A stretch of 35,804 bases of DNA from Chiloscyllium plagiosum. Taxonomy: Eukaryota. Positions 2,916 to 34,532 of this stretch are shown in pieces. A program made the position numbers and the translations under genes. Below the pieces are notes generated by a model. The model was not told the origin of the DNA, made no database searches, and saw only the letters and a list, made by a program, of their open reading frames with translations. Each line of letters starts with the position of its first letter. Position 1 is the stretch's first letter. Location of the stretch: the NCBI RefSeq assembly GCF_004010195.1, contig NC_057759.1, positions 798,565 through 834,368 on the forward strand. Reading direction: 5' to 3'.

Positions 2916-5419
2916 GTATCAACAATTGGCATTGGGAATGGACAAAATTATTTATTGCTACAGACAACTGAAACTGAACGAACATCATTTTCCTTCAATT
3001 ATTCTACAATCCCATAGTGGAGATCATCATTTTCACTTTCTTCAAATTATTTGCCCTGTTGATTGCCCCACGTGGTTCATTAATGCCCTTCGGGGACGAA
3101 AATCTATGGTGCTTACCTGGTCTGACAGACAGTAGGCCACAATTCATAGGAGCCTTAGAATGAGGCTTTTCAGCCCATCAGGCCAACTCCACCATTCGCA
3201 CATGGCTGATGTTTCTCAACTGCATTTTCCTGCCTTCTCCCTCTAAACCTTGATCCTCTCACCAATCAAGAACATTCCTATCTCTGTCTTAAAGGCACTC
3301 AATAACTCTCTGCAGCAAAAAACATTCCATAGAATCACCCCATCCAGCCGAAGACTTTCCTGCTCCTCTCCATTCCAGAAGACTTTTTCTTTCATACAGA
3401 ATGTGCTGGAGGAAGTCAGCAGGTCTGGCAGGTTCTATGGAAAGAGATGGACAGAGCTTGCAATGTGTGACGTGACTGTGACTTGTTACTTCTCTGCCTA
3501 AGCCTGAATATTGACTAGACATCGTTGCATTTGAACATGGCCTGCTTCAGTAGCAGAGGAGTGGTGATTGGTGTTGAACATTTTTCAATAATCACAAGCA
3601 GCCCACTCCTGAACTTAGGTTGGAGGAAAGGGCAGGGATGAAGCCGCTGAGTTGAATGTCCTGAACACACCTGCAACATCAATAATTTATCCAGTGTTCC
3701 GATCATTGAAATGAACAGTAAAAGAGAGTTACTTTATTCAGATGAAATGTAATGATAGCGAAACATTATTAAATTAAGTTTTATATGGATGAGATGCAAC
3801 AAAATATTTTAAGTTTATACTTAACATGAGTTGGAACATTCTTCGACTGCCTCGGAACTCCTTTTGACAACTGTGGTTCTATTTTCAGTATTCCACATTT
3901 CTGGCCATCATTCCTGAAATGAAAGCTTCGATAGGCACAGAACATTAAGAAGGAGCTGGGAAAATGTTGTTTACTAACACGCTTCATATTGTACGTGACA
4001 GCTTAACTTCTGTTCAACGAGGCAGTTCAGCACCACCCCCACAAGTGCAACTCGGGATGGGTAATAATTGCTGGCCATGAGTAAATTTTTTCAAAAGTGC
4101 TTGTGTCTGGTAAATGGATAAACACAGGGTAGCATGTGGAATATACAATCAGCTTTTCTTCTTCCGAGTAAAGACTTTGTTTCTCAAATTTATAAGAGCT
4201 TATTATACAGCATTTCAGATTTGGCAAATAACAACTGTACAAAATCAATATCTTCCTTCAATAGGATTCAGATGCACTTTAAATATTCCATTGTTATTTC
4301 CAGTCTTTATTTGTTATCTTAGACCATACGAAAGAGGAGCAGAGATTAGGCCATTCGGCCCATCGAGTCTACTCTGCCACACAATCATGCCTGATTTGAT
4401 TTTTCGACCCCATTCTCCCGCTTTCTCCATGTAACCTTTGATCCCCGTGACAATCAACAACGTATCTATCTCTGTTTAAATTATATGCAATGACCTGGCC
4501 TCCATAGTCTTCTATGGCAACGAATTCACGGATTCACCACTCTCTGGTTAAATCAGTTCCTCCTTATCTTCGTTTGAAAAGGCATTCCCTTCACTGATGT
4601 TGAAGTGACTGCAAATTGTGCAACTCTGATCGGAGAAATTAATTGATTGACTGGAGGGAAAATGCATGCTAATGTGTGGTCAAGGGAAAGATAAACTGAC
4701 TCAAATTGAGGGGAAGAGAGGGAGTAAATGTTACTTTGGAGCAGCCTAAAGTACATTGGACTTCTAGAAACTTCTCGACAGTGAAGGAAACGTATTGACA
4801 TGTCAAAATATAATTGAATTGAGGAAGACGGATCTCAGAATATTTGTGGGAGGGAAAAAAATGTATGGTAATTGTAAAATGAATTGTAGACGATTCTGAG
4901 GTATTCACATTCCTGAATTTGCATCAGCGTGATGTTCAGGTGTTGGATTGGGAATGATCCTATGGAATGGCAGAACAAGGTTAAGGGGCTGAATGGCCTA
5001 GTCCTTCAAGAATGTTGGTATTATTAACACTAGCCTCGTCATCCAAATCATTATAAAAGATGTCCTGCTATGTGCCCGATCCTTGTCACAGAGCCAGAGT
5101 CATGGAGTCATACAGCATATAAACAGTCCATTTGGCATTCCCTGTCGATGCTGACGAACAAACAGATCCCATTTTCTTACATTTGGTCCACAACCCACTA
5201 TCTTCTGCTATTTGAAGTGTTTGTCCAGATGCTGATTAAATGTTGTGATAGTATTTCCCTCCACCACCATCTCAGCCAGCATGGTCCAAGATTCAACCAC
5301 TGTCTGTGAGAAGTAGATGTTTCCTCAGATGCCCCTAAGCCACTTATTCCTCGGCTTAAAAGTTTGTTCTCTGGTCTTAGACAGGTTTGTCATGGGGAAA
5401 GGTTTTAACAATCTCCTCT

Positions 5420-6053: not shown

Positions 6054-8810
6054 ATAGAACAGAGAACATAGAAAAATACAGCGCAGTACAGGCCTTTTGG
6101 CCCTCGATGTTGCGCCGTTCCAAGCCCACCTAACCTACACTAGCCCACTATCCTCCATATGCCTATCCAATGCCCATTTAAATGCCATAAAGAGGGAGAG
6201 TCCACCACTGCTACTGGCAGGGCATTCCATGAACTCACGACTCGCTGAGTAAAGAATCTACCCCTAACATCTGTCCTATACCTACCATCCCTTAATTTAA
6301 AGCGATGCTCCCTCGTAATACGTGGAGAAAGGTTCTCATGGTCAACCCTATCTAAACCCCTAATCATCTTGTACACCTCTATCAAGTCACACCTAAACCT
6401 TCTTTTCACCAATGAAAACAGCCCCAAGTGCCTCAGTCTTTCCTCATACGGTCTTCCTACCATACCAGGCAACATCCTGGTAAACCTCCTCTGCACCCGT
6501 TCCAGTGCATCCATATCCTTCCTATAGTATGGCGACCAAAACTGCACACAATACTCCAGATGCGGCCGCACCAGAGTCTGAGATAACTGCAACATGACCT
6601 CAGGACTCCGGAACTCAATTCCTCTACCAATAAAAGCCAGTACGCCATATGCCTTCCTCACCGCACTATTTACCTGGGTGGCAACTTTCAGAGATCTGTG
6701 CACATGGACACCAAGATCCCTCTGCTCATCCACACTACCAAGTAACCGACCATTAGCCCAGTACCCGATATTCTTGTTACTCTTACCAAAGTGAATCACT
6801 TCACACTTACCTACATTGAACTCCATTTGCCACCTTTCTGCCCAGCTCTGCAGCTNNNNNNNNNNNNNNNNNNNNNNNNNNNNNNNNNNNNNNNNNNNNN
6901 NNNNNNNNNNNNNNNNNNNNNNNNNNNNNNNNNNNNNNNNNNNNNNNNNNNNNNNNNNNNNNNNNNNNNNNNNNNNNNNNNNNNNNNNNNNNNNNNNNNN
7001 NNNNNNNNNNNNNNNNNNNNNNNNNNNNNNNNNNNNNNNNNNNNNNNNNNNNNNNNNNNNNNNNNNNNNNNNNNNNNNNNNNNNNNNNNNNNNNNNNNNN
7101 NNNNNNNNNNNNNNNNNNNNNNNNNNNNNNNNNNNNNNNNNNNNNNNNTGCTTTCCAGAGAATCCTAGGATAAATGCCATCAGGCCCAGGGGACTTATCT
7201 ATTTTCACCTTTTCCAGGATTTCCAACACCTCTTCCCTACATACCTCAAAGCCATGCATTCTAATTTATTGTGACTCAGTATTCACCTCGGCAACAATGT
7301 CCTGTTCCTGAGTGAATACTGACGAAAAGTATTCATTCATTGTCTCCCCAATCTCTTCAGCCTCCACACGCAACTTCCCACTACTATCCTTGACTGGACC
7401 TATTCCTACCCTAGTCATTCTTTTATTCCTGACATACCTATAGAAAGCCTTAATGTTTTCCCTAATCCTACCAACTAAGGACTTTTCATGTCCCCTCCTT
7501 GCTGCTCTTAGCTCTCTCTTCAGATCCTTCCTGGCTACCTTATAACTCTCAATCGCCCCAATTGAACCTTCACGCATCATTTTTACATAGGCCGCCCTCT
7601 TCCCTTTAACAAGGGTTTCCAATTCTTATTAAACCACGGCTCCCTCACACGACCCTTTCCTCCCTGCCTGACAAGGACATACTTATCAAGGGCACTTAAT
7701 AGTTGCTCCTTGAACAAGATCCACATATCAATTGCGCCCTTCCCTTGAAGCCTACTTTTCCAAGCCACGCATCCTAAGTCGTGCCTCACCGCATCATAAT
7801 TTCCCTGCCCCCTCTTGCACCGCATTGCACACTTATCCCTCTCCATCACTAGAGTGAAAGTCAACGAATTGTGGTCACTGTCCCCAAAGTGCTCACCTAC
7901 TTGCAATTCTAACACCTGGCCTGGTTCGTTAACCAGAACCAAATCCAGTGTGGCCTCACCTCTTGTTGGCCTGTCTACATATTGTGTCAGGAAACCCTCC
8001 TGCACACATTGGACAAACACCGACCCATCTAACGAACTCGAGCTATAGCTTTCCCAGTCAATATCTGGAAAGTTAAAGTCCCGCATAACAACCACCCTAT
8101 TACTTTCACTCTTCTCCTGAATCATCCTCGCAATCCTTTCTTCTACGTCTCTAGGACTATTAGGAGGTATGTGGAAAACTGCTAACAGGGTGACCTCACC
8201 TTTCCTATTCCTAACCTCAGCTCAAACTTCCTCAGATGGCGAGTCTTCATCCATCGTCCTTTCCACCGCTGTAATACTATCTTTGACAAGCAATGCCACA
8301 CCTCCCCCTCTTTTACCCCCACTTCTGACCGTACTAAAACATTTAAACTCTGGAACCTGCAACAGCCAATCCTGTCCCTGTTCTACCCATGTCTTCGTAA
8401 TAGCCACAACATCGAAATCCCAGGTACCAACCCACGCTGCAAGTTCACCTACTTTATTTCGTATCCTTCTTGCATTGAAGTATACACACTTCAAGCCACT
8501 TTCCTGTTTACAGGCACCGTCCTTTGAGATTGATGCCATGTTCCTAACATCCCTACACTCCAGGTCCTGCTACAGTAGAGGTTCCCATGCCCCTGCAGAG
8601 TTAGCTTAAACCCCCCGAAAGAGCACTAGTAAACCTCCCCGCAAGGATACTGGTGCCCCTAAGGTTCAGGTGTAGACCATCCTGTTTATAGAAGTCCCAC
8701 CTTCCCCAGAAGGAACCCCAGTCATCCAGATACAGGAATCCCTCCCTCCTGCATCATCCCTGTAGCCACGCATTTAACTGTTCTCTCTCCCTATTCCTCG
8801 ACTCTCTATC
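6054..8810 (-). mobile_element. Relatively young CR1/HER1-type LINE (end of ORF1, APE endonuclease, RT, 3' tail), frameshifted, spanning an assembly gap
   Basis: ORFs with LKCVYFNARRIRNK...DVVAITKTW, GGGVALLVK, RDFNFPDIDW, TLDLVL, SDHN, KSPGPDGI and RT C-terminal LVRPHLEYCVQFWSP; atagaac tail at 6054. Confidence 0.95.
6856..7148. other. Assembly gap (N run)
   Basis: Run of n bases inside the CR1 copy. Confidence 1.
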
Positions 8811-11425: not shown

Positions 11426-11492
11426 ATGATTCGACAACGTTTTACTTCAATCACACATTTCCATGCTAATATATTGATGGTTATGTTATTTT
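11426..11492 (+). pseudogene. Candidate first signal-peptide exon (copy B)
   Basis: ATG...NILMVMLF ending at a phase-1, weak T|GTGAAC donor. Spliced to the 36-bp exon it gives MIRQRFTSITHFHANILMVMLFFHFHVLVEMQDT, a plausible signal peptide. Confidence 0.25.
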
Positions 11493-11882
11493 GTGAACTC
11501 GCCCAGGTCCTTAATTTTTTTATTCCTTCTTAACGTAGACTGCCCTAAGAGAGTGGTGATGTGATAGGTCAATACCCTGGTATAGTAGCATTATGTAAAC
11601 TTCGGATCCTGAAGACCACTCGTCTCAAACGCATTCAAAACAACATGTCACCCAAACTGTCTGAAGGACTGCCTGTTAAAACGCATTTTGAAGTATCTTT
11701 AACAAACATTACACTAATTTACACTTCATTCGACGACCTTACAAAAAAATTACACTACCTGATCACACCCCAACATCCAAATGTTTCATTTCAGAAATTT
11801 GCATCCATGTATGGTTCCAGATTTGTCGAATTGAAAATATTATTTTTCAGCAATTCCTTTATTCCTTTATGTTTCTCTTTAG

Positions 11883-11918
11883 TTCATTTCCACGTGCTGG
11901 TCGAAATGCAGGATACAT
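11883..11918 (+). pseudogene. 36-bp signal-peptide mini-exon (S2) of an LRC-like Ig receptor (copy B)
   Basis: Strong acceptor (ttcctttattcctttatgtttctctttag) and donor (CAT|GTGAGT), exactly 36 nt; phase 1-1 reading xHFHVLVEMQDT. Confidence 0.7.
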
Positions 11919-12369
11919 GTGAGTATGCGAATTAAAACTCATTGAATTTATTAACATTAAAATTACATTGTTAATGTGTTTCCACTTGATTATCAGATCA
12001 CTTTTATTGAAAACTAGCTTAATAAATGTACTGCTGAAATTTGTGTACATTGACATCACTTTGGAAGTTAATCTTCTCATATCTCTCTTTTTTTTGTGTC
12101 TATCATGAAGTGCCAGAGATTTGTTGATTATATTTCCCAGCAGTTTCCATAACTAACAGTGTGAGCATTTCAATGTTGAACATTACCATGATTGCATTGT
12201 TAAGTTCTGTTGTTCGAAAATTCATAGCACTATTACGGCCATTAGAACCTTTAAAAAATCTGTAAACCTTAGAGTCGTACAGTCCAAGAGATTTACAGCA
12301 CAGCCAAAGGTTCTTTAATCCATCAGATATGCTCCAGTGAAAAAAAACCACGTCAATATTCTCTAATGC

Positions 12370-12910
12370 ACTTGGTCCCATAGCCTTCGGGTATCAAGTG
12401 CACATCTAAATACTTCTTCGATGAATTGAAGGTTTTTGCCTCTCCTACCCTTACAGGTAGTATGTTCCCGAATATCGTCCAGCTCGAGGTGAACAAGTTC
12501 TAAACCTTCTGCCCTTTACCTCGGATCTATTCACCTCCCATTCCCCTTACGCCCATTCTCCACCCCGGTCATTACTCTCTCCATCAAAGGAGAAAGATTT
12601 CTTCCTGTCTATCCTATCTCTGGCCCTCGTTTTATGCATCTCAATCATGTCCTCCCTCTCAATCTGTTCTGCTCCCCTGGAAACAAACCCAGTCTGTCCA
12701 ATCTCTCTCCATTACTGGAACTCTCCATCTCTGAGGCATCATCTTGATAAATCACCCACCACATCCTCTCCCAATGCTATCACACCTCTCCTCGAATTTG
12801 GATTGCAAAACTGCACAAAATACTCGCTGTGTGGCCTAACCAACATTTTAAACTTTCCCAGCATCTCCTCCCTGCTCTTAGACTCTCAGCTAACAAAGGC
12901 AAGTGTTCCC
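12370..12910 (-). mobile_element. Degraded CR1 fragment
   Basis: aactgcacaaaatactc...tgtggcctaacc, tcaatcatgtcctccctc motifs (reverse of the CR1 RT end). Confidence 0.7.
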
Positions 12911-13092
12911 ATACACCTTCGATTAATTTCAACCAATGAGATATATTTTAAGAATTCCAGCGTTCTAAGCACTACCTATCAGTGCGGGATCATTATGTAG
13001 TAAAGTACATATGAAGTCAGCTTATTATAACAGCTTCCAATGTTTTGATTATGCATACTCTAGAGATAAAATGTTTTAATTGCATTCCTCAG

Positions 13093-13372
13093 ACGATTTT
13101 CGCAGCCAGTTGTGTTTCTGAATCCATTATATGGGGTGTTTCTGGAACGAGAGACAACATCAGTGAAATGTAACTGTCAATGTCCAGTCACAAGGATACG
13201 CTCTTGCTATAGTCACGATCCCGGCTGCAATGTCATAAATAGTCCTAAAGGACAATATTAGAACCCTTAAACAGAGGTGAATCAAGTTACAAGTGTGAAT
13301 GTTTCTTCGTATTGGCGATTGGAACAGGGAGAAGATCAGGATTGACTGACTCTATTCAGATACACGTCGGAG
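13093..13372 (+). pseudogene. Ig C2-type domain exon 1 (copy B), frameshifted, Cys-rich
   Basis: AG acceptor at 13091-92 and GAG|GTATGT phase-1 donor. Reads FSQPVVFLNPLYGVFLERETTSVKCNCQCPVTRIRSCYSHDPGCNVINSPKG, frameshift near 13250, then RTILEPLNRGESSYKCECFFVLAIGTGRRSGLTDSIQIHVG. Length 280 nt is not a multiple of 3. Confidence 0.75.
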
Positions 13373-13576
13373 GTATGTCATTAAACACACTTCTCCCCTC
13401 TGTTTCTTGTTTGATTTATTGTTACCACATGTATCATGATACGGTGAACAATGATGTTGTGCTTGATATTCAGGCACCTCATGCCATACAAATTGAAGCA
13501 CGCTAGTAGAACAGAGTGTAGAGTACAGTGTTATAGCAACAGTGTAATTGTAGTGTGTGAGAGAGAAAGATAAGAA

Positions 13577-14015
13577 TTAATATTTGAGTGGTCTATTCAG
13601 AAGTCTGATAACAGCAGATAAGAAGATGTTCTTTAATATGGTGCTACTTGCATTCGAACGTTCGTATCTTCTGCCTGATGGAAGCGAGTGTAATTGGAGT
13701 GGGAAGGGTTTGTAATTATGCTTTTGTTTCTGGAGAAGGCGGGAAGTATAGATGGAGTCAATAGATGGAAGATTGGTTTGCATGCTGGCCTAGATTGTTT
13801 TCACGACTCTGTAATTTCTTAAGCAGTTGCCATACCGTGCTGCGATGCATCCTGATAGGATGCTTTCTGTGGTGATCTTTAAACACTGGTAAGCGTGCCT
13901 GTGAAGGTCCCTAATTTCATTGAGGAAGTAGAGCCATTTTTATGTTTTCTTGACTATCGCATCAGCATGGGTGGACCTGGACAGATTGTTGGTGACCATC
14001 ACTGCCAGCAACTTA
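13577..14015 (-). mobile_element. Rex1/Babar-type LINE 3' fragment
   Basis: LPSIDSIYTSR...LPSGRRYE...LKNIFLSAVIRLLN matches the Rex/Babar RT C-terminal LPSGRRY...AIRLLN motif. Confidence 0.75.
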
Positions 14016-14019
14016 AGAC

Positions 14020-14302
14020 TGTGGGCACAGTATTTAGCACTGCTGCCGCACAGTGCCAGAGACCCGAGTTCAATTCCCGCCTCAGGCGACTGACTGTGTG
14101 GAGTTTGCACATTCTCCCCATGTCTGCGTGGGTGTGCTCCGGTTTCCTCCCACAGTCCAAAAATGTTTGGTGAATTGGCCATGCCCGTACTAACCGTAGT
14201 GTTAGGTGTAGGGGAATGGGTCTGGGTGCGTTGCGCTTCAGCAGGTCCGTGTGGACTTGTTGGGTTGAAGGGCCTGTTTCCACACTGTAAGTAATCTAAT
14301 CT
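14020..14302 (+). mobile_element. HE1-type V-SINE
   Basis: tRNA-like head (agcactgctgcc...gagttcaattccc), V-domain tgtgtggagtttgcacattctcccc...ccggtttcctcccacagtccaaa, taatctaatct tail. Confidence 0.9.
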
Positions 14303-15435
14303 CCATAAGTGATCAACGTTAATTTTACAGAGGTTCATGATCACAGTCACAGAAGACAGGCAGTCAGCAACTTTCTGAGAGTTAACTGAGAAGCAGCAAT
14401 TTTCATATAGTGCAATCATTAATGAGGCAAAGGCTGGACATATAATACCGATGCACAGATGTGAACCCTTTCCAGACTCTGGATCCGTTCTGTAGGATGG
14501 AGGTGTGGAGTCAGTGCACTCCAACGTTCCCATGAGCTTGCCTCCTTTGATGGAGGTCTCTAATATTCCTAGGGACTGAAAGTCTTTGTTCTTTCCTGGG
14601 GCTGATGAAGGGGAATTCCTGATCTTCCTCCTCCCTAGAGAGATGGTGTGGCTCTACGCCCTGAATCTTTCCCCTTTCCTCCCCTACTGTCGCTGCTAAT
14701 TTACCTGATTTTGGGAGCTGGCCATCAGTGCTATGCCATTCACCTTTCTTCGCCCTCTCAGTCAATGGCATTGGGACAGTAACTCATGGCTTCTGCTCCT
14801 CCATTCGAAGTTTACTTTTCATTCCTTTTAAGATTAAAACCACATTCTCTTCAATCCATTACACTGATGTTGGAGTAGGAGGTCATTTGATTCAATACTT
14901 TAGCGTTTCTTATGACGTCTCCTCTGTTTTCATACAGAGACTTGTCTACACTTGCACAAGGTTAGTTACTGATGTGACACAGTTAGATAAAATCTGGTTC
15001 TACACAAGAATAAAAAGAATGAAGGATGACTTAACAGAATTTTAAGGTAACTCCCAAATCTCAACACCTGCAAGCCCCTTCAAATATTATTGTTGGAATT
15101 TTGCAAGGGTGCTATTGTATTGTAATATTATTCTGTAATAAAGTTTGAAGCATTTATGTTAACCGACACAGTGCATTTTTTGTGAATAAGGAATAGTATT
15201 TCACTCAAGATCAACCTTATTTTGTCCACTGTGATATAATTTAAATTATTATTAATTGTGTATATGACATTGTTGTCATATGTTTATATATTGGATTTCA
15301 AAATTGTTGTTGTTGAGATCTCTCACTGGACTTCGCAATTGTTTTATTCAGCACCTTCCTCCTTTCAGACGTTTTGATTTAAAAACAAACTTTCAATGTT
15401 TATGCATAAGCCTTTACTTTAAAATGATGTGACAG

Positions 15436-15765
15436 ATCAACTCGCCCAACTGACGATCAAAGTGCTGTCAGGTTCTGGTGCCAATTCAAACAGGGACAAT
15501 GTCGTGATTTCTTGCAAAAGTGAGTTTCGGCCCACAGAAGGAATATTCTACTTGTACAATAGTCGGAGGAAAGATTTTATACAGGATGGTCATGTGACTG
15601 ATCTTGGCGATGCTGCAGCCTTTCCCATCAATGTCCATGAACATGCTTCTGCAGAAAACTACAGTTGTCAATATCAAACAGAGGTTAATGGACGGACCAT
15701 CCTTTCCCCATCCAGCTAATCTGTTGTAGTCACAGAGAAAGGAAAGAAAGATCACACATCAAAAG
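15436..15765 (+). pseudogene. Ig C2-type domain exon 2 (copy B) with in-frame TAA at 15717-15719
   Basis: Phase 1-1 exon (acag|AT ... AAG|GTAGTT), 330 nt: DQLAQLTIKVLSGSGANSNRDNVVISCKSEFRPTEGIFYLYN...AAAFPINVHEHASAENYSCQYQTEVNGRTILSPSS*SVVVTEKGKKDHTSK. Has the B-strand Cys, FxLY in place of the C-strand Trp, AxFPI and NYSC motifs typical of LRC-type domains. Confidence 0.85.
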
Positions 15766-16224
15766 GTAGTTACATTTTCTTGTGACTCAGTCTTCGTCTT
15801 TTATTATAAATAGATACAGGTAGTAGAAACCACTAGCCTAATTTTTATGTGAGTTAAAATTTACAAAATGCCTCTCTAATGATGAATAGCACTTTAGGTT
15901 TTAAGCCTGCATTATGACCAAAATTTAACTTGTTGCAGTTTGTTCAAAGATCTGAGTGTGGGTTTTCAAGCCCTTCTCCTGGCAGGCTTGTACCTGTGAC
16001 TGAATTAGCTGACATCATCTTGATTCACAAACATGCCAGATAACACTGCCATTGTTCAATAGGATGCAACGCCTGTGTTTTGACAGAGCGCTGTCTATGT
16101 ATTGTCAAATACGACAATTTGATCATTCAGAACCCAATTTGCGTCAAACCTTCATACATTGCTTTTGAATTGAACGAATAGATGCTTATTTGTGAATTCA
16201 CCGGTTCAGGTAAAACCTCTACAA

Positions 16225-16840
16225 GATTATCTTGCAGTTTGCAACACTTGCAGTGGCAGGGGAAGGTACCAGGAGTGGGGTGGGTGGAATGGATCTGAAA
16301 AGAAAGGCGCAGAGGAAATGGCCTCTTTGAAACACTGAGAGAAGGAAATGTATACTTAGTGGTCTGTTTGTAGGTGGCAGAAGTGTCAGAGATGGTAGAT
16401 GTGATGTATACGGAGGTTTGTCGGGTGGAAGGTGAGGACCAGAAGGGGTCCTATCTTTGTTGCATTGGGAGAGGTGCGGTTCAAGGGCAGAGGTGCAGAA
16501 AGTGGAGGCGATGTGGTGGAGGGCATCATTGCCCACGAGAGGGGAAATCGCCGAAATTCCACAGCTACCTGGACTACACCTCCTCCCGACGTGCCTCCCT
16601 TAAAAACGTGATTCCTTATTCCCAATTTCTCTGCGTCCGTGGCATCTGTTCCCAGAATGATCAATTCCACCTCAGAAAATTCCAGATGGCCTCCTTCTTC
16701 AAAGAACGCAATTTCACCTCCCACATGATTGACAATGCCCTCCAGTGCATCTGCTCCACTTCCCACACCTCCGCCATTGAACTCTACCCCTCCAGTATAA
16801 CTACTCTGATCTCCAGCATCTGCAGTCCTCATTTTCTCCT
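16225..16840. mobile_element. Two Penelope-like fragments in opposite orientation
   Basis: Minus-strand piece (DALHHIAST...NKDRTP) at about 16225-16540 abuts a plus-strand piece (HSYLDYTSS...IPYSQFL...MASFFKERNF) at about 16545-16840. Confidence 0.85.
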
Positions 16841-17619
16841 TCTAAGGAAAACAACCCCACTTAGTCAAATCTTTCTCCACCATCACTGAAATTCTCCAAC
16901 CGTAAAGCAACATGCTCGCAAATCTCGCTTGTCACCTTTTCCAGTGTGATCACAAACCTCCTAGAATGTGAATTACAGAACTACACACATTATTCTCACT
17001 GTATGTCATAACCAACATTGTACACAGTTCCGGCATAGCAGTTGTAGATCATGATATCAATCAACGATGTTTTATAAAGTATTTCTCCTGGAGGCTGAAG
17101 AGTTGCCTCGTTGGAATTTATCACTTGAAACCTTTATAAATCAGAAGCCAGGATGTGTGTGTGGATCAGTTTGTCTCAGATTGTAACTAATTGGGGATGG
17201 TAGCCGTCCCTTTTAGTGTTCTACAATAAATGATGTTCCTTTGAAGTCAGTTTCCTGAGTCACATGACACCTGCCCATTGCCCATAATCTATTCCACAAT
17301 TGGCAATCAAAGAACCTATCTTGGTCACTCGTCAAGTCAAATCACTCAAATTTAATTGTTCTCCGGGAAGCAGATTTATGAGGAGCTGAGAGAAAAAATC
17401 ACCTCAGTCATGAACGTGTGTACTGTGGTCTTTAAGCTGGATTCTCTAGTCTTAGTGTCTCACACTGTCTGCACTGTTTAGTCCCACAAGATCTCATGTG
17501 CTTCCTCAGTCAATGCTACATTTATCTCAGCTCCAATGAACAAAGGCCCAAACTGTGCAACATTTTCTCACAAGAAGTGATCCCTCCTTCTACTCCCAAA
17601 GCAGATGCAGGAAACCCAG

Positions 17620-18310
17620 AGAAACAAAGGGATCTTGGGGAGCTAGGCCACAGACCGCAGCAAGTGGCAGTACTAGTTAATAAGGTGGTTAAGATGGCAA
17701 ATGAGAAACTTGTCTTTACCAGTGAAAGTATAGATAACAAGAGCTGGGAGGGGCGTATTGATGTGGAGATATACAGGACTTTGGTGAGGCCACAGCTGGA
17801 GCACTGTGTACAGTTCCGGTATCCACATTACAGGAAGGATATAATTGCACCGGAGGTGGTGCAGAGGAGATTCACCAGGCTGCTGCATGAGATGGAGCAT
17901 TTCAGCAATGAAAAGTTACTGGATAAGCTCGGGTTATTTTCTTTGAGCAGAGAATTCTAACAGGTGATCTGACAGATGTGTGTCAGATTATGAGGGGCAT
18001 CGACAGGATGGGTACAAAGCAGCTGTTCCCCTTAGTCAATATGCAGAAGGGCATCATTTTCAAGTGAGAGACTGGAGGTTTAGAGTGGTTAAATGATTTG
18101 TTTACCATCCAGAGATTGTAGATGTCTGATTTGCATTGATTTGGAGACAGGTAACCTCACTATCTTTAAGAAGTACTCAGATGATCACCTGAGCAACATA
18201 ACATTCAAGTGTATGGGCCTAAAGTTGGAACGTGTGTCTAATGCGGCTAACAGTGCGTGTTGTCATAGCACAGGCTTTGTGCGCTGAAGACCTGTTCTGT
18301 ATTGTATGAA
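17620..18310 (+). mobile_element. Degraded CR1 RT/3'UTR fragment
   Basis: QRDLG...LVRPQLEHCVQF...QRRFTRLL...LGLFSL. Confidence 0.85.
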
Positions 18311-18568
18311 ATCTGTGTTCTGCAAATCCCTTCCATCAACCAATTCTGGCAAATCCTAGGCCACCCTTTCCTTGAGTTTTGTGGAGATAGCAGTTGCGTT
18401 CTCACGCTTCCCTTCTGACCCTAACACATCAGCACTCTTTGTAACTGTTTCAAGGTTGGCCATCTCCGCAATGGGCAGGTCAGTGCTCCTCTGCTCCTAC
18501 ATCATTTCTCTCAGTCTGTCGAGCTCCCGAAGACGCAGCAATTTAACTGTGTTCTTCTGCTTGTGTAG

Positions 18569-18679
18569 AACGAGATCAAACTGCTGTAACTTTGGTTAAT
18601 CTCTGCCTCAGTCTCTTTGTGCTCATTGTGATGGTGGTCATCATTGGCAATCATTTTACAATCGGCTTGCCACTGACAG
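18569..18679 (+). pseudogene. Transmembrane exon (copy B), LILR/CHIR-like
   Basis: Acceptor gttcttctgcttgtgtag, donor CAG|GTAAAA, 111 nt, phase 1-1, open: ERDQTAVTLVNLCLSLFVLIVMVVIIGNHFTIGLPLT. Confidence 0.8.
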
Positions 18680-18904
18680 GTAAAATAGCCACTTTGCTTT
18701 GATTTTGAATCTTCGATATTCCCTTACATTTGTTTGTGTTTCTACCTTGGTGTATTCACCATTCCTTTGGCGAGCATTTAGCTGGATGGCTGGTTTGCTA
18801 ACACAGCATGAAGCCAAACCCTACATAGACTGAGGTTACCATGAAGGACTCCTTTCTCTATCGCTTAACTTGGCTGGGGCGTGATGATCCTCAGATGGAA
18901 ATTC

Positions 18905-18931
18905 TCTCTCTCTCTCTTTTCCCAACACTCA

Positions 18932-19028
<97 letters not shown>
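18905..19028. repeat. (CT)n and long (CA)n microsatellite
   Basis: Direct reading; the CA run spans about 18941-19028. Confidence 0.95.
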
Positions 19029-19030
<2 letters not shown>

Positions 19031-19039
19031 CTCCCAGGA

Positions 19040-19460
19040 TCCACTCGGATTATGGCCTGTCCACATGTCTTTTAAATGGTGCAACTGTACCTGCATCTAC
19101 TATTCCTCTGGCAGTTTGTTCCACATATGAACCAACATCTGTGTGCAAATGTTGCCCCTTATGTCCCTTTTTAAATCACTTTTAGCTCTCACCCATGCTG
19201 CTAGTTTTGAACTCGCCCACCCTTGGAAAATGCCATAGCTGTTCAAATATTCATGACCCTCATAATTTTATGCACATTTATAATGTCACCCTTCAAACTT
19301 CTGCTCTCCAGGGAAAGAAGGCCCAGCCTATCTAGCCTCACCTTTTATCTCAAACCCTCCATTCCTGGTAACATCCTTGAAAGTATTTTCTGTATCATCT
19401 CCAATTTATTACTTTCCTTTCTATAGCATGGCGACGATAATTACATTCAGTACTCCAAAA
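19040..19460 (-). mobile_element. Degraded CR1 fragment
   Basis: ccctcataatttta...tcacccttcaaacttctgc...cctggtaacatcctt motifs. Confidence 0.75.
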
Positions 19461-19620
19461 GTTCCCACAGCAACTTCGTAACATCAAAAGTAATCTGTGT
19501 TTGTTTTTTCTCCTATTAAAATTGTCAAGTGTCAGAGCTGCCAGTGAACGCTGTGTAAGGTTTACAGAGTTGGATATATTTTCTCGCTCGTCTGTCTTGT
19601 ACTCAGTTCTGTTCTGCTAG

Positions 19621-19724
19621 ATGAATCCATCCAAGCCTTTTATTTTGCATTCCCTCATCACTCAAGTCAATGTTTGTTCACAAATCCTTCATTGATGAAC
19701 TCATCAGAATATCACCACGATTGA
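19621..19724 (+). pseudogene. Candidate cytoplasmic/terminal exon (copy B)
   Basis: Pyrimidine-rich acceptor ...gttctgttctgctag; phase-1 reading DESIQAFYFAFPHHSSQCLFTNPSLMNSSEYHHD*. No homology support. Confidence 0.25.
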
Positions 19725-20278
19725 ATATTGATGCACAATGGACTGTCGTGCCCAAATGATTTATCAGAATGAATGCAAGAAATCCTCAACAAAACAGAGG
19801 AAAATATGTTGTGCATTTCAACAACTTCTCAAACATGAGTAGCAAACCGAAACAGCACCCCATTGTTCCTCTCTCCAAGGCAACTCTACAGCCAAATTAA
19901 TATCGAGTTTTTTCTCTGAAATGGCCTGGCAAACCACTCATTTCAAAGGCAGTTCGGAATGAGCAATAATTGCTGGCACCAGCAACACCCAGATACCATG
20001 TACTCATTTTCTGAGATCATGCAAAAGGACATGCCGATTCCTCTGCTCTGAAGATTCTGTCCGTTTAGAGAATGTAACCTTTTTCAATCTTACACCAAAA
20101 TGGATAACCTCACACATACCCATGTGAAACTCTGTCTGCCAACTGTTGGTCCATTCACCTTTCACATTCTTCCTCAAGTAAGGGGATCAAAATTCGCACA
20201 CCACAGGATTCAAGGTTCTGGATTAGTGGTGCTGGAAAAGCACAGCAGTTCAAGCAGCATCCGAGGAGCTGTAAAATC

Positions 20279-20306
20279 GACGTTTCGGGCAAAGGCCATT
20301 CATCAG
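20279..20306 (-). ncRNA. Minimal hammerhead ribozyme core in Penelope terminal repeat
   Basis: Reverse complement reads CUGAUGA-auggc cuuu gccc-GAAA-CGUC. Confidence 0.7.
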
Positions 20307-23122
20307 GAATACAGGCAGAGTGCCTAAAGGATAGAAAGATAAATGAGAGGAGGGTGGGGGTGGGGAGAAAGTAGCATAGAGTACAATAGGTGAGTGGGGG
20401 AGGGGATGAAGAAGCTAGGTCAGGGAGGAGGGAGGAGTGGATAGGTGAAAAAGAAGATAGACAGGAAAGACAAGTCATGGGGACAGTGCAGAGAAGAAAG
20501 TTTGGAATGGGGTGAGGTGGGGGAACGGGAAATGCTGAAACTGTTGAAGTCCACATTGATGCACTGGGGTTGAAATGTTTCGAGGCGGAAGATGAGGCGT
20601 TCTTCCTCCAGGTGTCGGGTGGTGAGGGAGCAGCGGTGAAGGAGGCCCAGGACCTCCATGTCCTCGGTACAGTGGGAGGGGAGTTGAAATGTTGGGCCAC
20701 AGGGCGGTGTGGTTGATTGGTGCAGGCGTCCCAGAGATGATCCCTAAAGCACTCTGCTAGGAGGCGTCCAGTCTCCCCAATGTAGAGGAGACTGCATCGG
20801 GAGCAATGGATACAATAAATGATATTGGTGGATGCGGAGGTAAATCTTTGATGGATGTGGAAGGCTCCTTTAGGGCCTTGGATGGAGGTTAGGGAGGAGG
20901 TGTGGGCGCAGGTTTTGCAATTCCTGCGGTGGCAGGGGAAGGTGCCAGGATGGGACGGTGGGTTGTAGGGTGGCGTGGACCTGAACAGGTAGTTATGGAG
21001 GGAACGGTCTTTGCGGAAGGTGGAAAGGAGTGGGGAAGGAAATAAATCCCTGGTGGTGGGTTCTTTTTGGAGATGGCGGAAATGTCGTTGGATGATTTGA
21101 TTTTCGCGAAGTTTGGTAGGGTGGAAGGTGAGCACCAGGGCGTTCTGTCCTTGTTACGGTTGGACGGGTGAAGTCTGAGGGCGGAGGTGCGGGATGTGGA
21201 TGAGATGCGTTGGAGGGCATCTTTAACTACGTGGGAAGGGAAATTGTGGTCTCTAAAGAAGGAGGCCATCTGGTGTGTTCTGTGGTGGAACTAGTCCTCC
21301 TGGGAGCAGATACGGCGGAGGTGGAGGAATTGAGAATACGGGATGGATTTTTGCAGGAGGTAGGATGGAAAGAGGTGTAATCCAGGTAGCTGTGGGAGTC
21401 GGTGGGTTTATTAAAAAATGTCGGTGTTAAGTCGGTCGTCATTAATGGAGATGGAGAGGTCCAGGAAGGGGAGGGAGGTGTCAGAGATGGTCCAGGTAAA
21501 TTTAAGGTCAGGGTGAAATGTGTTGCGGAAGTTTATGAACTGATCAACCTCCTCGCGGGTGCACGAGGTGGCGCCAATGCAGGCATCAACGTAGTGGAGG
21601 AAGAGGTGGGGAGTGGTGCCGGTGTAATTACGGAAGATGGACTGTTCTACGTAGCCAACAAAGAAACAGGCATAGCTGGAGCCCATACGGGTGCCCATTG
21701 CTACCCCTTTGGTCTGGAAAAAGCGGGAGGATTCGAAGGAGAAATTGTTAAGAGTGAGGACCAGTTTGGCCAAACAAATGAGACTATCGGCGGAAGGGTA
21801 CTACTGGGGACATCGGAAGAGAAAGAAACGGCGGGGTTGGAGGCCCTGGTCATGGCGGATGGAGGTGTAGAGAGATTGGATATCCATGGCGAAGATGAGG
21901 CGTTGGGGGCCGGGGAAACGGAAGTCTTGGAGGAGGTGGGGGACGTGGGTGGTGTCCCGAACGTACGTGGGGAGTTCCTGTACTAGGGGGGATAGGACAG
22001 TGTCGAGGACCTTTCCATCTCCATTAATGACGACCGGCTTGACACCAACATTTTTTTTCAAACACACCGACTCTCACAGCTACATGGATTACACTTCTTT
22101 CCACCCTACCTCCTGCAAAAATGCCATCCCGTATTCCCAATTCCTCCGCCTCCACCGTATAACACACCAGATGGCCTCCTTTTTTAGAGACCGCAATTTC
22201 CCTTCCCATGTGGTTAAAGATGCCCTCCAACGCATTTCGTCCACAACCCGCACCTCCGCCCTCAGACTCCACCGCTCCAACCGTAACAAGGACAGAACGC
22301 CCCTAGTGCTCACCTTCCACCCTACCAACCTTCACATAAACCAAATCATTTGCCGACATTTCCGCCACCCCAAACGGACCCCACCACGAGGGATATATTT
22401 CCTTCCCCACCCCTTTCTGCCTTCCGCAAAGACCGTTCCCTCCATGACTACCTGGTCAGCTCCACGCCCCCCTACAACCCACCCTCCCATCCTGGCACCT
22501 TCCACTGCCCCGCAGGAATTGCAAAACCTGGCCCACGCCTCCTCCCTAACCTCTATCCAAGGCCCGAAAGGAGCCTTCCACATCCATCAAAGTTTTACCT
22601 GTACATCCACAGATATCATTTATTGTATCCGTTGCTCCCGATATGGTCTCCTCTACATTGGGGAGATGGGCGCCTCCGAGCAGAGTGCTTTAGGGAACAT
22701 CTCTGGGACACCCGCACCAATCAACCACACTGCCAAAATTTCAACTCCCCCTCCCACTCTGCCAAGGACAGAGGGTCCTGGGCCTCATTCACTGCCGCTC
22801 CCTCACCACCCAATGCCTGGCGGAAGAACGCCTCATATTCCGCCTCGGAACACTTCAACCCCAGGTCATCAATGTGGACTTCAACAGTTTCCTCATTTCC
22901 CCTTCTCCCACCTCAACTTAGTTCCAAGCTTTCAGCTCAGCACTGTCCCCATGACTTATCTTTCCTGCCTATCTTCTTTTCCACCTACCCACTCCACCTT
23001 CCTCCCTGACATATCACCTTCATCCCCTCCCCCACTCACCTCTTGTGCTCTATGCGACTTTCTCCCTACCCCCACCCTCCTCTCATTTATCTCTCCACCC
23101 TTCAGGCAATCTGCCTGTATTC

Positions 23123-23150
23123 CTTATGAAGGGCTTTTGCCCGAAACGTC
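23123..23150 (+). ncRNA. Hammerhead core with mutated catalytic motif (CUUAUGA)
   Basis: cttatga-agggc tttt gccc-gaaa-cgtc; perfect stem II, G-to-U change in the CUGA core. Confidence 0.6.
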
Positions 23151-23587
23151 GATTTTACTGCTCATCGGATGCTGCCTGAACTGCTGTGCCTTTCCAGCGC
23201 CACTAATCCAGAATCTGGTTTCCAGCATCTGCAGGCATTGTTTTTACCGACAGGATTCAAGGTGTTTATATGGCTGGTTAAGTTCAGGTTCCAGTTAATT
23301 GTATCATCGTACTTGGATAACAGGATAATCAGCACTAGTAATGCCCACAGATTGTCTCTGAGCTGACATGGTGTTTTGCTTTGCCACTTAAATAATAGAT
23401 CCCACCCACGCTGAAGTTCTGAAGTAAAGTAGAAGTACACTTTAGTTTCCAATTTATGTCCTCACATTCCTGCTGTTTATGTATATGAATGTCTCCAGTG
23501 ATTAATTGTTTTGACCAGGCTGCTAACATCATCAACGCCCCACTTCTTTGCTTACTCTGGACTGTCCATTTACCCATCTACTTGCAG

Positions 23588-24213: not shown

Positions 24214-24570
24214 GGGAGAGAAAGGATCCGACAAAACACACTGTTTACGTCTCCACAACAGGAGTATAATGCTCGACGTGAGAATCGATTCACTTGCTGT
24301 TTCAACTGTGTCTTTGGAAGATGGGGTTATAACGTGTGGTTTGTGTCGCTCCCTGCCATTGTTCCACACCTGCCTCTTTTCCAAAATTGTTCGCTCTCGC
24401 TCTCTCGCTCCCACACACATTCAGGAGAAAGTGAAGCTTCTCACTCAATCATGCAAGGTGCAAGAGGCCCTTCAGCCTAATGAAGATTTTCTACCAAATA
24501 CTGTTATAAATCTGGAGCAGTCCCACTTTTCGATCCGTTGGCTGAGTTTGTTAACGTCCTTTAGCAGAGG
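24214..24570 (+). pseudogene. Degenerate Ig domain exon 1 (copy C)
   Basis: Strong acceptor (gttcttctgttaactttctgcag). Reads ERKDPTKHTVYVSTTGV*/RRENRFTCCFNC... versus FSQPVVFLNPLYGVFLERETTSVKCNCQC in copy B, and ends YCYKSGAVPLFDPLAEFVNVL. 3' boundary uncertain. Confidence 0.35.
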
Positions 24571-33938: not shown

Positions 33939-34532
33939 ATTCATCCAGTTCATGACATCATTTATAATTATTACTGGGAATTACTACTGATCCTTGTGAC
34001 AGTTCACTTGTTACAGCTTCTCAATCTGATAATGGCCTGGTTAGCCAATCTTCATTGACAGTTAAGAAAACAATCAGTAAATGTAATAGAATGCTGGCCT
34101 TAACATCAAGGGGGCTGGAGGATAATGATGCAGAAGTTATGCTGCAGTTATACAAAGCCCTGGTTAGGCCTCACTTGAAGCAGATGTGGATGGATAGATT
34201 GGGCTGGCAGGGAGTATAACGTTGGTTCACAAGAAATTCATCCAGTTCATGACATCATTTATAATTATTACTGGTAATTACTACTGATCCTTGTGACAGT
34301 TCACTTGTTACAGCTTCTCAATCTGATAATGGCCTGGTTAGCCAATCTTCATTGACAGTTAAGAAAACAATCAGTAAATGTAATAGAATGCTGGCCTTAA
34401 CATCAAGGGGGCTGGAGGATAATGATGCAGAAGTTATGCTGCAGTTATACAAAGCCCTGGTTAGGCCTCTCTTGCAGCAGATCTGGATGGATAGATTGGG
34501 CTGGCAGGGAGTATAACGTTGGTTCACAAGAA
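33939..34532. repeat. 297-bp tandem duplication (33939-34235 / 34236-34532)
   Basis: Two near-identical copies, about 4 substitutions by eye. Confidence 0.95.

Follow-up and report, generated by a model that had tools for sequence, protein, structure and literature searches.

Exon structure of the receptor copy

The stretch of Chiloscyllium plagiosum DNA analysed here (35,804 nucleotides, C50:798565-834368; hereafter the window) lies on contig C50, which spans 8.08 Mb of the 3.56-Gb genome, and holds a decayed gene for a receptor with two immunoglobulin (Ig) domains. The gene belongs to a shark family whose intact members probably act on leukocytes as receptor pairs, one form inhibitory and the other activating, and probably share ancestry with the receptors of the leukocyte receptor complex (LRC); we give this reading a probability of roughly 0.7. 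The long open reading frames of the window are mostly retroelement fragments or opposite frames, and an endonuclease-reverse transcriptase domain is found at 7583-8218 (coordinates without a contig name refer to the window).

Five exons of the gene remain, all on the plus strand and with intact splice sites. They are the second leader exon of 36 bp (11883-11918), which is open and conserved in paralogues, an exon for the first Ig domain (D1, six-cysteine type; 13093-13372, 280 bp), an exon for the second Ig domain and a short stalk (D2; 15436-15765, 330 bp), a transmembrane (TM) exon of the short-tail type (18569-18679, 111 bp), and a last coding exon (24214-24269), which encodes a short tail ending in TAA and matches the tails of P0020 and P0056. 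An earlier note on this DNA had proposed the first four as plus-strand exons with canonical splice ends in phase 1, and both the AG/GT ends and phase 1 were confirmed for all of them. The limits that it set for the gene did not hold. The ATG at 11426, its start, is not conserved in five aligned paralogues; the genes of paralogues begin several kb farther upstream, at a signal exon of 31 nt. The segment at its end (19621-19724) is conserved as DNA, but neither a reading frame nor an acceptor is conserved in it, the last coding exon being the one at 24214-24269. The FxLY, AxFxI, and YxC..SxxS motifs that it attributed to the Ig domains are present in D2, but D1 lacks them and instead has six conserved cysteines (19/19, 19/19, 18/19, 20/23, 23/23, and 23/23 in the six columns), which may form extra disulfides.

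The 36-bp exon is the sole unit of its form within the window. When the window was block-shuffled 200 times, 8.5% of the shuffles yielded a unit of such form, which alone is therefore weak evidence. A homologue lies upstream of D1 in all six other C50 copies examined, with degraded splice sites in some, and the RefSeq models of the intact paralogue include the exon, 31 of whose 36 positions are identical in the window. Because of the conservation in these six copies and the presence in the RefSeq models, we took the exon to be real.

Two further candidates were rejected. A leader-like stretch at approximately 2030-2087 was considered as the signal exon, but it ends in phase 0 and is absent from the RefSeq models. 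A Tyr-rich frame that two paralogues show near 19621 was considered as a tail exon, but stops interrupt it and no acceptor is conserved. Around the latter site, a noncoding block (19590-19900) downstream of the short-tail TM exon is 71-79% conserved in five paralogous places without a conserved frame. The intron before the last exon also contains two back-to-back retroelement-like repeat copies in opposite orientation (20200-23300).

Lesions of the window copy

The window copy is a pseudogene of the short-tailed type with four independent lesions. Global alignment with the paralogue places a deletion junction at 4593-4599, where approximately 1.32 kb (C50:883300-881979 in the paralogue), including the 31-nt signal-peptide exon, has been lost; a sensitive blastn search with the signal exons of three paralogues found no match in the window. 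In D1, the frame is disrupted by the loss of 1 nt close to the start of the exon and of 16 nt near 13256; the D1 exon measures 280 bp, whereas two paralogues have 297 bp and a third has 291 bp. D2 contains an in-frame TAA at 15717-15719. When the window exons are spliced, translation counted from the first position of the mini-exon meets a stop after 20 codons, and the copy has neither the start exon nor the open reading frame that a functional gene requires. Farther upstream, local alignment to C50:884150-884280 identified a plus-strand homologue (3628-3755) of an exon that some RefSeq isoforms of the intact paralogue use; the ATG found there reads ATC in the window.

One could suppose that the copy works in other individuals and that the breaks are assembly errors or mark a null haplotype. 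The splice sites of the five remaining exons are intact, and null alleles of paired-receptor loci occur in certain haplotypes (PMC1458963). However, four independent lesions, including deletions of 1.32 kb and 16 nt, would all have to be accounted for. The exons are also no better conserved against the intact paralogue (233/280, 83%, for D1 and 255/330, 77%, for D2) than the flanking intron (120/143 and 74/93 identical, 80-84%), and the other two copies on C50 that combine a short tail with Ig exons are likewise broken. We therefore give a working allele almost no credence. The copy itself is dead, and its value lies in pointing to the family and in exemplifying the turnover of short-tailed copies.

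The family in the C. plagiosum genome

The family forms a cluster of mostly broken copies on the single 8-Mb contig C50. Among 19 candidates from a genome search with D2, 12 were matches, nine of them on C50; a DNA search with D1 gave eight matches out of eight (seven on C50, with open frames in three), and one with the TM exon gave 11, all of these locus counts being lower bounds. Two genes on C50 are intact: LOC122544523 (P0001/P0005), on the minus strand at C50:858-885 kb, and LOC122544524 (P0015/P0016) at C50:3.716-3.737 Mb. Both are named "uncharacterized" in RefSeq, and in both a neutral TM is followed by a tail that carries VTYAxL, an immunoreceptor tyrosine-based inhibitory motif (ITIM), and a C-terminal tyrosine motif. 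The D2 of a neighbouring paralogue is 100% identical to a C. plagiosum RefSeq protein. The gene anatomy of the family consists of a 31-nt signal exon, a 36-nt exon, D1, D2, TM, and tail. Pfam Ig_3 was found in 22 of 23 members, and a type I surface protein with C2-type Ig domains fits the intact paralogues and orthologues.

The combination of D1 and D2 with the TM type of the window occurs in three C50 copies (the window, 1.74 Mb, and 2.84 Mb), all of which are broken. C98545 carries a short-tailed gene that is more distantly related and whose signal, D1, D2, and TM exons are open; three candidate units for its 36-bp exon were noted, and homology was established for none of them. Further copies of the TM exon lie at 3.90, 3.94, 4.15, and 5.48 Mb of C50, with no D1 or D2 in the stretches examined around them. 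On C12, a single-D2 member that has a 36-bp exon and whose TM is neutral (C12:2813079-2828222) shares its contig with a zeta-family locus (C12:49.77 Mb). Long multi-Ig relatives with similar domains are found at C47:8.88-8.94 Mb and also on C13, C20, C28, and C32; one such relative, P0201, has 1415 amino acids and carries the source name perlecan-like.

Orthologues and paired members in other cartilaginous fish

Close orthologues are present in epaulette, brownbanded bamboo, zebra, and whale sharks. A profile search gave 688 representatives at E ≤ 0.001, of which the best 150 were examined and 20 of these checked by name. Among the matches listed, members of the two-domain type come from sawshark, horn shark, catshark, and basking shark, and longer multi-Ig relatives from sawfish, electric ray, smoothhound, white shark, and Callorhinchus; tortoise, turtle, lizard, frog, grouper, and primate IGSF1 come next. 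The grouper protein P0077 joins SRCR domains to similar C2 domains.

The members pair, with near-identical ectodomains mounted either on an ITIM tail or on a short-tailed TM. The ectodomain of P0025, which has an ITIM, is identical to that of sawshark P0031, which has an Arg-bearing TM, at 198 of 211 residues, and horn shark P0052 and P0063 share 141 of 178 residues. Short-tailed models with the layout of the window copy were found in whale shark (P0019), sawshark (P0031 and P0045), and horn shark (P0027 and P0063). The pairing with ITIM-tailed neighbours had not been part of the earlier note. In the zebra shark model P0020, a neutral TM is followed in tandem by a short-tail TM, which may represent alternative exons of one gene or a fused model.

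The automatic names in RefSeq and UniRef cover the same proteins or close relatives: shark relatives are called IGSF1-like, A1BG-like, TARM1-like, OSCAR, LILRB3, DM43-like, or "uncharacterized", the last being usual for the carpet-shark members. These names are based on best hits and differ between species, and no single paired family is recognised in them, but designations such as IGSF1-, TARM1-, and OSCAR-like already hint at the family.

Sequence and fold of the ectodomain

Significance against the PDB was reached with profiles and not with single sequences. The 23-member profile had PIR-B as its top match (E = 2.4e-30; best stretch, 41.3 bits), and the 29 rows following FCRL5 at rank 2 all belong to the LRC (LILRs, KIRs, and OSCAR). 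PIR-B was also the best match of the D2 profile (5.8e-5). In the D2 comparisons, either PIR-B or LILRB2 stood on top, with weak signals for single sequences; the window D2 alone gave no PDB match below E 0.09 and no Pfam match over the cut-off, and P0002 alone gave no PDB match at E ≤ 1. For the D1-only profile, the best single domain was CHIR-AB1 (1.2e-5). As a control, an unrelated C50 Ig exon went to Fc-gamma receptors in the same PDB search.

Fold comparisons gave a similar ranking. With the AlphaFold model of P0002, Foldseek placed OSCAR, PIR-B, and LILRB2 at ranks 1-9, and VIA placed LRC domains at ranks 1-7 (Z 11.1-11.9), with LILRB4, LAIR1, and CHIR-AB1 superimposed at a root-mean-square deviation of 2.4-2.6 over 91-93 residues of D1. 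FCRLA (Z 9.5) and Fc-epsilon-RI (Z 8.9) appeared in lower rows, the LRC margin over FCRLA being approximately 2 Z. The Atlas model of P0045 aligned with OSCAR at a TM score of 0.74 over both domains, and eight of 10 structure rows carried LRC names; in the Atlas feature search with the same protein, the FCRL5, FCAR, A1BG, IGSF1-like, and KIR3DX1 clusters all scored 0.90-0.91. Identity to LRC proteins in the structural alignments is 15-20%.

Leader, transmembrane segment, and tail

The leader of the family is split into exons of 31 and 36 nt in the paralogues. A 36-bp second leader exon is characteristic of LRC genes; the papers checked for it did not contain this length. The KIR leader consists of two exons (PMC8562567), and the leader exons of Fc receptor (FcR) and FCRL genes measure 30 and 21 bp (PMC2413239), an arrangement from which the 31/36 split of the shark family departs.

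The short-tail TM of the window aligns with tetrapod NxxR TMs, reading TxxN. Activating LRC forms carry an NxxR TM (PMC6557307). Over 12 shark-type TMs, nine of which have a species name, the Arg column is occupied by Arg in five, His in four, Gln in two, and Asn in one (the window). P0045 and P0031 are of the Arg type, and P0019 and P0056 of the His type. By its alignment, the shark TM appears to be a homologous variant of the LRC NxxR type rather than an absence of it. The classical activating FcR TM has the motif (M/L)Fxx(D/N)TxL (PMC2413239), which was not seen in the TM alignment of the family. The genome has one zeta-family TM locus (C12:49.77 Mb), which we take to be CD247-like rather than FcR-gamma.

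Evolutionary position of the family

LRC-type receptors are type I surface proteins with one to four C2-type Ig domains (PMC6557307), and a descent of the shark family from a common stock with them is probable. Several observations weigh against this relationship. FCRL5 is second with the 23-member profile (1.4e-20; best stretch, 25.0 bits) and tops the D1-only profile by summed score (2.1e-11) with no single stretch passing, and Fc-epsilon-RI is also close for D1 (9.9e-5); the sequence of D1 therefore does not decide between LRC and FCRL. The quality of the AlphaFold model of P0002, with its two beta-sandwich domains, is mediocre at a mean pLDDT of 60.6. Within approximately 1 Z of the LRC rows come PECAM-1 (Z 10.9) as well as beta-sandwiches other than Ig (10.2-10.9). 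The full NxxR occurs in none of the 12 shark-type TMs, and a TM of the NxxR type is also present in Xenopus FCRL and SLAM genes (PMC2413239, PMC4536121).

Synteny and the domain tree belong with these points. None of the LRC framework genes searched was placed on C50, with few candidates scored and LENG8 and CDC42EP5 outside the search: CNOT3 is on C39, NDUFA3 on an unplaced contig, Tweety (TTYH1) matches only on C21 and C24, the S4 family (RPS9) gave one weak match on C9, and PRPF31 had no match in the genome search. The 200 kb around CNOT3 contain no family exons. CHIR genes likewise sit apart from the framework genes (PMC6557307). The neighbours of CNOT3 at C39:1.04-1.26 Mb include a CCDC113/CCDC96-type gene and a class C G-protein-coupled receptor, which are not neighbours in the mammalian LRC. 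A quick tree was built from 92 rows of 106 extracted domains over 97 columns, with at most six domains from long proteins and without mammalian LILR, KIR, or FcR rows. It places the window D2 among shark D2s with a support of 98, joins the shark domains to multi-Ig domains of frog, turtle, grouper, and chimaera with a support of 90, and sets them apart from IGSF1 and the NxxR-bearing reptile proteins; its deep forks are open. Because the full NxxR is lacking and neither synteny nor the tree decides the matter, strict membership in the LRC is not established.

The earlier note had called the copy a cartilaginous-fish LRC/LILR/CHIR-like receptor. At the level of the family, this is the best-supported reading, but the copy is dead, its coordinates were partly wrong, and its TM lacks the Arg of LRC receptors. 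The DYTxxNLIR-type TM that the note described is related to the FcR-gamma-associating TM of the LRC except for the Asn in the Arg column; as a hallmark of the LRC it fails, since Xenopus FCRL and SLAM genes carry the type as well. Of the further evidence to which it had looked, synteny was not borne out on C50 for CNOT3, NDUFA3, Tweety, PRPF31, and the S4 family, and profiles and folds rank the LRC first, but the tree leaves the deep forks undecided. The proposed layout is used by intact paralogues and orthologues, and no firm grouping of the domains with an unrelated family of the Ig superfamily was seen, the two points on which the note had staked its reading.

Two other origins have to be weighed. 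The family may be a sister lineage of the LRC proper, with LRC-fold C2 domains like those of HIDE1/C19orf38 and of the fish, frog, and turtle multi-Ig proteins called "IGSF1-like/A1BG-like", in which case pairing would have evolved separately in cartilaginous fish. Pfam Ig_C19orf38 matches 13 of 23 members (E ≤ 0.05; best, 1.5e-8), the quick tree joins shark D1 and D2 to the frog, turtle, grouper, and chimaera domains and not to IGSF1, related multi-Ig genes are scattered over C13, C20, C28, C32, and C47, no framework synteny was found, and the six-cysteine D1 is specific to the family. However, the same Pfam model also matches a lizard NxxR-bearing protein (2.7e-28) and a wallaby DM43-like protein (2.7e-6). 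Because these reptile and marsupial LRC-type proteins match too, the model cannot separate the lineages. The tree is moreover a quick search on 97 columns, and the split 31/36 leader and the TM homology tie the family to the LRC proper. We consider a separate sister lineage unlikely.

Still less probable is a mosaic of the FcR/FCRL or LITR type, in which an FCRL-like D1 and an LRC-like D2 were joined by exon shuffling in a mixed cluster. The high scores that the D1 profile gives to FCRL5 and Fc-epsilon-RI would fit such an origin, as would the Fc-gamma-receptor-like exons interspersed on C50, one of which has an Arg-type TM copy 10.3 kb downstream. However, the leader is 31/36 and not 30/21 (PMC2413239), the modelled fold of D1 appears nearer to LILRB4, LAIR1, and CHIR-AB1 than to FCRLA or Fc-epsilon-RI, and the classical FcR TM motif is absent.

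Possible function and comparison with known systems

The members of the family very probably work like paired LRC-type receptors. By analogy with LRC biology (PMC6557307), the V/I-T-Y-A-x-L ITIM of the long-tailed members would serve to recruit SHP-type phosphatases and inhibit the cell, and short-tailed members with a TM Arg would pair with a zeta- or FcR-gamma-type dimer bearing immunoreceptor tyrosine-based activation motifs and activate it (PMC6557307). Both tail forms would bind the same ligand, for which major histocompatibility complex (MHC) class I, immunoglobulin, and collagen offer possible precedents. Genes of the family would be gained by duplication and lost again, with frequent decay of short-tailed copies. 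In carpet sharks, where Arg is mostly replaced by His (Asn in the window), the coupling of short-tailed forms may be weak, or these forms may serve as decoys. Because His or Asn replaces Arg and all three such C50 copies are broken, this lineage may be in the course of losing the activating arm.

The chicken CHIR system (CHIR-A, -B, and -AB) is similar to the shark family in that one- and two-Ig paired receptors are clustered on a small chromosome, and CHIR-AB1 is both the best single-domain PDB match of the shark D1 and among its top fold matches. Pseudogenes are numerous in both, and make up 41 of 103 CHIR loci (PMC1458963). The shark family differs in having about a dozen loci rather than about 100, a six-cysteine D1, and often His, Gln, or Asn in place of Arg. 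Mammalian LILR/PIR, OSCAR, LAIR1, NCR1, and KIR have the C2 domains that rank first by profile and fold, and share with the shark family a two-exon leader and the contrast of ITIM tails with short tails on an Arg-type TM. However, identity in the structural alignments is 15-20%, no full NxxR is present, and no framework synteny was found; we do not claim one-to-one orthology. Xenopus ILR1-4 and XFL resemble the family in the NxxR-type TM of short-tailed members, and XFL also in a paired TM1/TM2 design (PMC2413239, PMC4536121). The ILRs differ in being all activating and linked to TTYH1, RPS9, and CDC42EP5, and the XFLs in following in part the 30/21 leader rule and in their FcR-type domains.

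The time of origin of the LRC has been stated as unclear (PMC6557307), and a 2014 survey reported that no LRC-type C2-only genes, FcRL, or FcR-gamma were found in sharks (PMC4016189). Our literature search, to which much subscription literature was closed, found no description of this family: a term search found no LILR or KIR in PMC6795676, and the terms searched for are absent from PMC11372145 and from one supplementary file of PMC3964593, whose main supplementary note may lie outside the search. If sharks have a paired ITIM and short-tail family to which rays and a chimaera add relatives, the origin of the LRC would shift to the jawed-vertebrate ancestor, and the LRC-type system would then be older than the 2014 survey concluded (PMC4016189). 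LOC122544523, LOC122544524, and their orthologues are candidate shark receptors of natural killer or myeloid cells for "missing self", or receptors for Ig, and are open to expression tests.

FcR-like exons on the same contig

The LRC-like cluster on C50 is interspersed with Ig exons of another kind. An exon on the minus strand at C50:5487484-5487747 matched Fc-gamma receptors best in the PDB (E = 3.2e-5), and it is one of six copies between 2.26 and 5.49 Mb, the others lying at 2.258, 3.377, 5.154, 5.428, and 5.464 Mb. Further Ig exon types occur nearby at C50:5438591, 5434580, and 3382672; we take these to be FcR-type. Upstream of the FcR-like exons are putative 25-nt leader exons, and a search near them for a 21-bp mini-exon found none. 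The TM exon of the window recurs, here with Arg, at C50:5477061-5477174, 10.3 kb downstream of an FcR-like exon, to which the splicing of this copy is only putative; the copy is accompanied by a matching last exon (C50:5474310-5474533).

Because this Arg-type TM copy and the FcR-like exons lie within the LRC-like cluster, we tentatively raise the possibility, on balance doubtful, that C50 is a microchromosome retaining an ancestral leukocyte-receptor complex in which LRC-type paired genes and Fc-receptor-like genes are interspersed and swap an activating TM-and-tail cassette. C50 would then represent the state before mammals split the LRC and FcR clusters, and both families, together with inhibitory/activating pairing, would date to the first jawed vertebrates.

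Other features of the window

The window contains a 293-base assembly gap (6856-7148) and a 297-bp tandem duplicate with 98% identity (33939-34532), possibly an assembly artefact. A (CA)44 microsatellite is located at 18940-19028.

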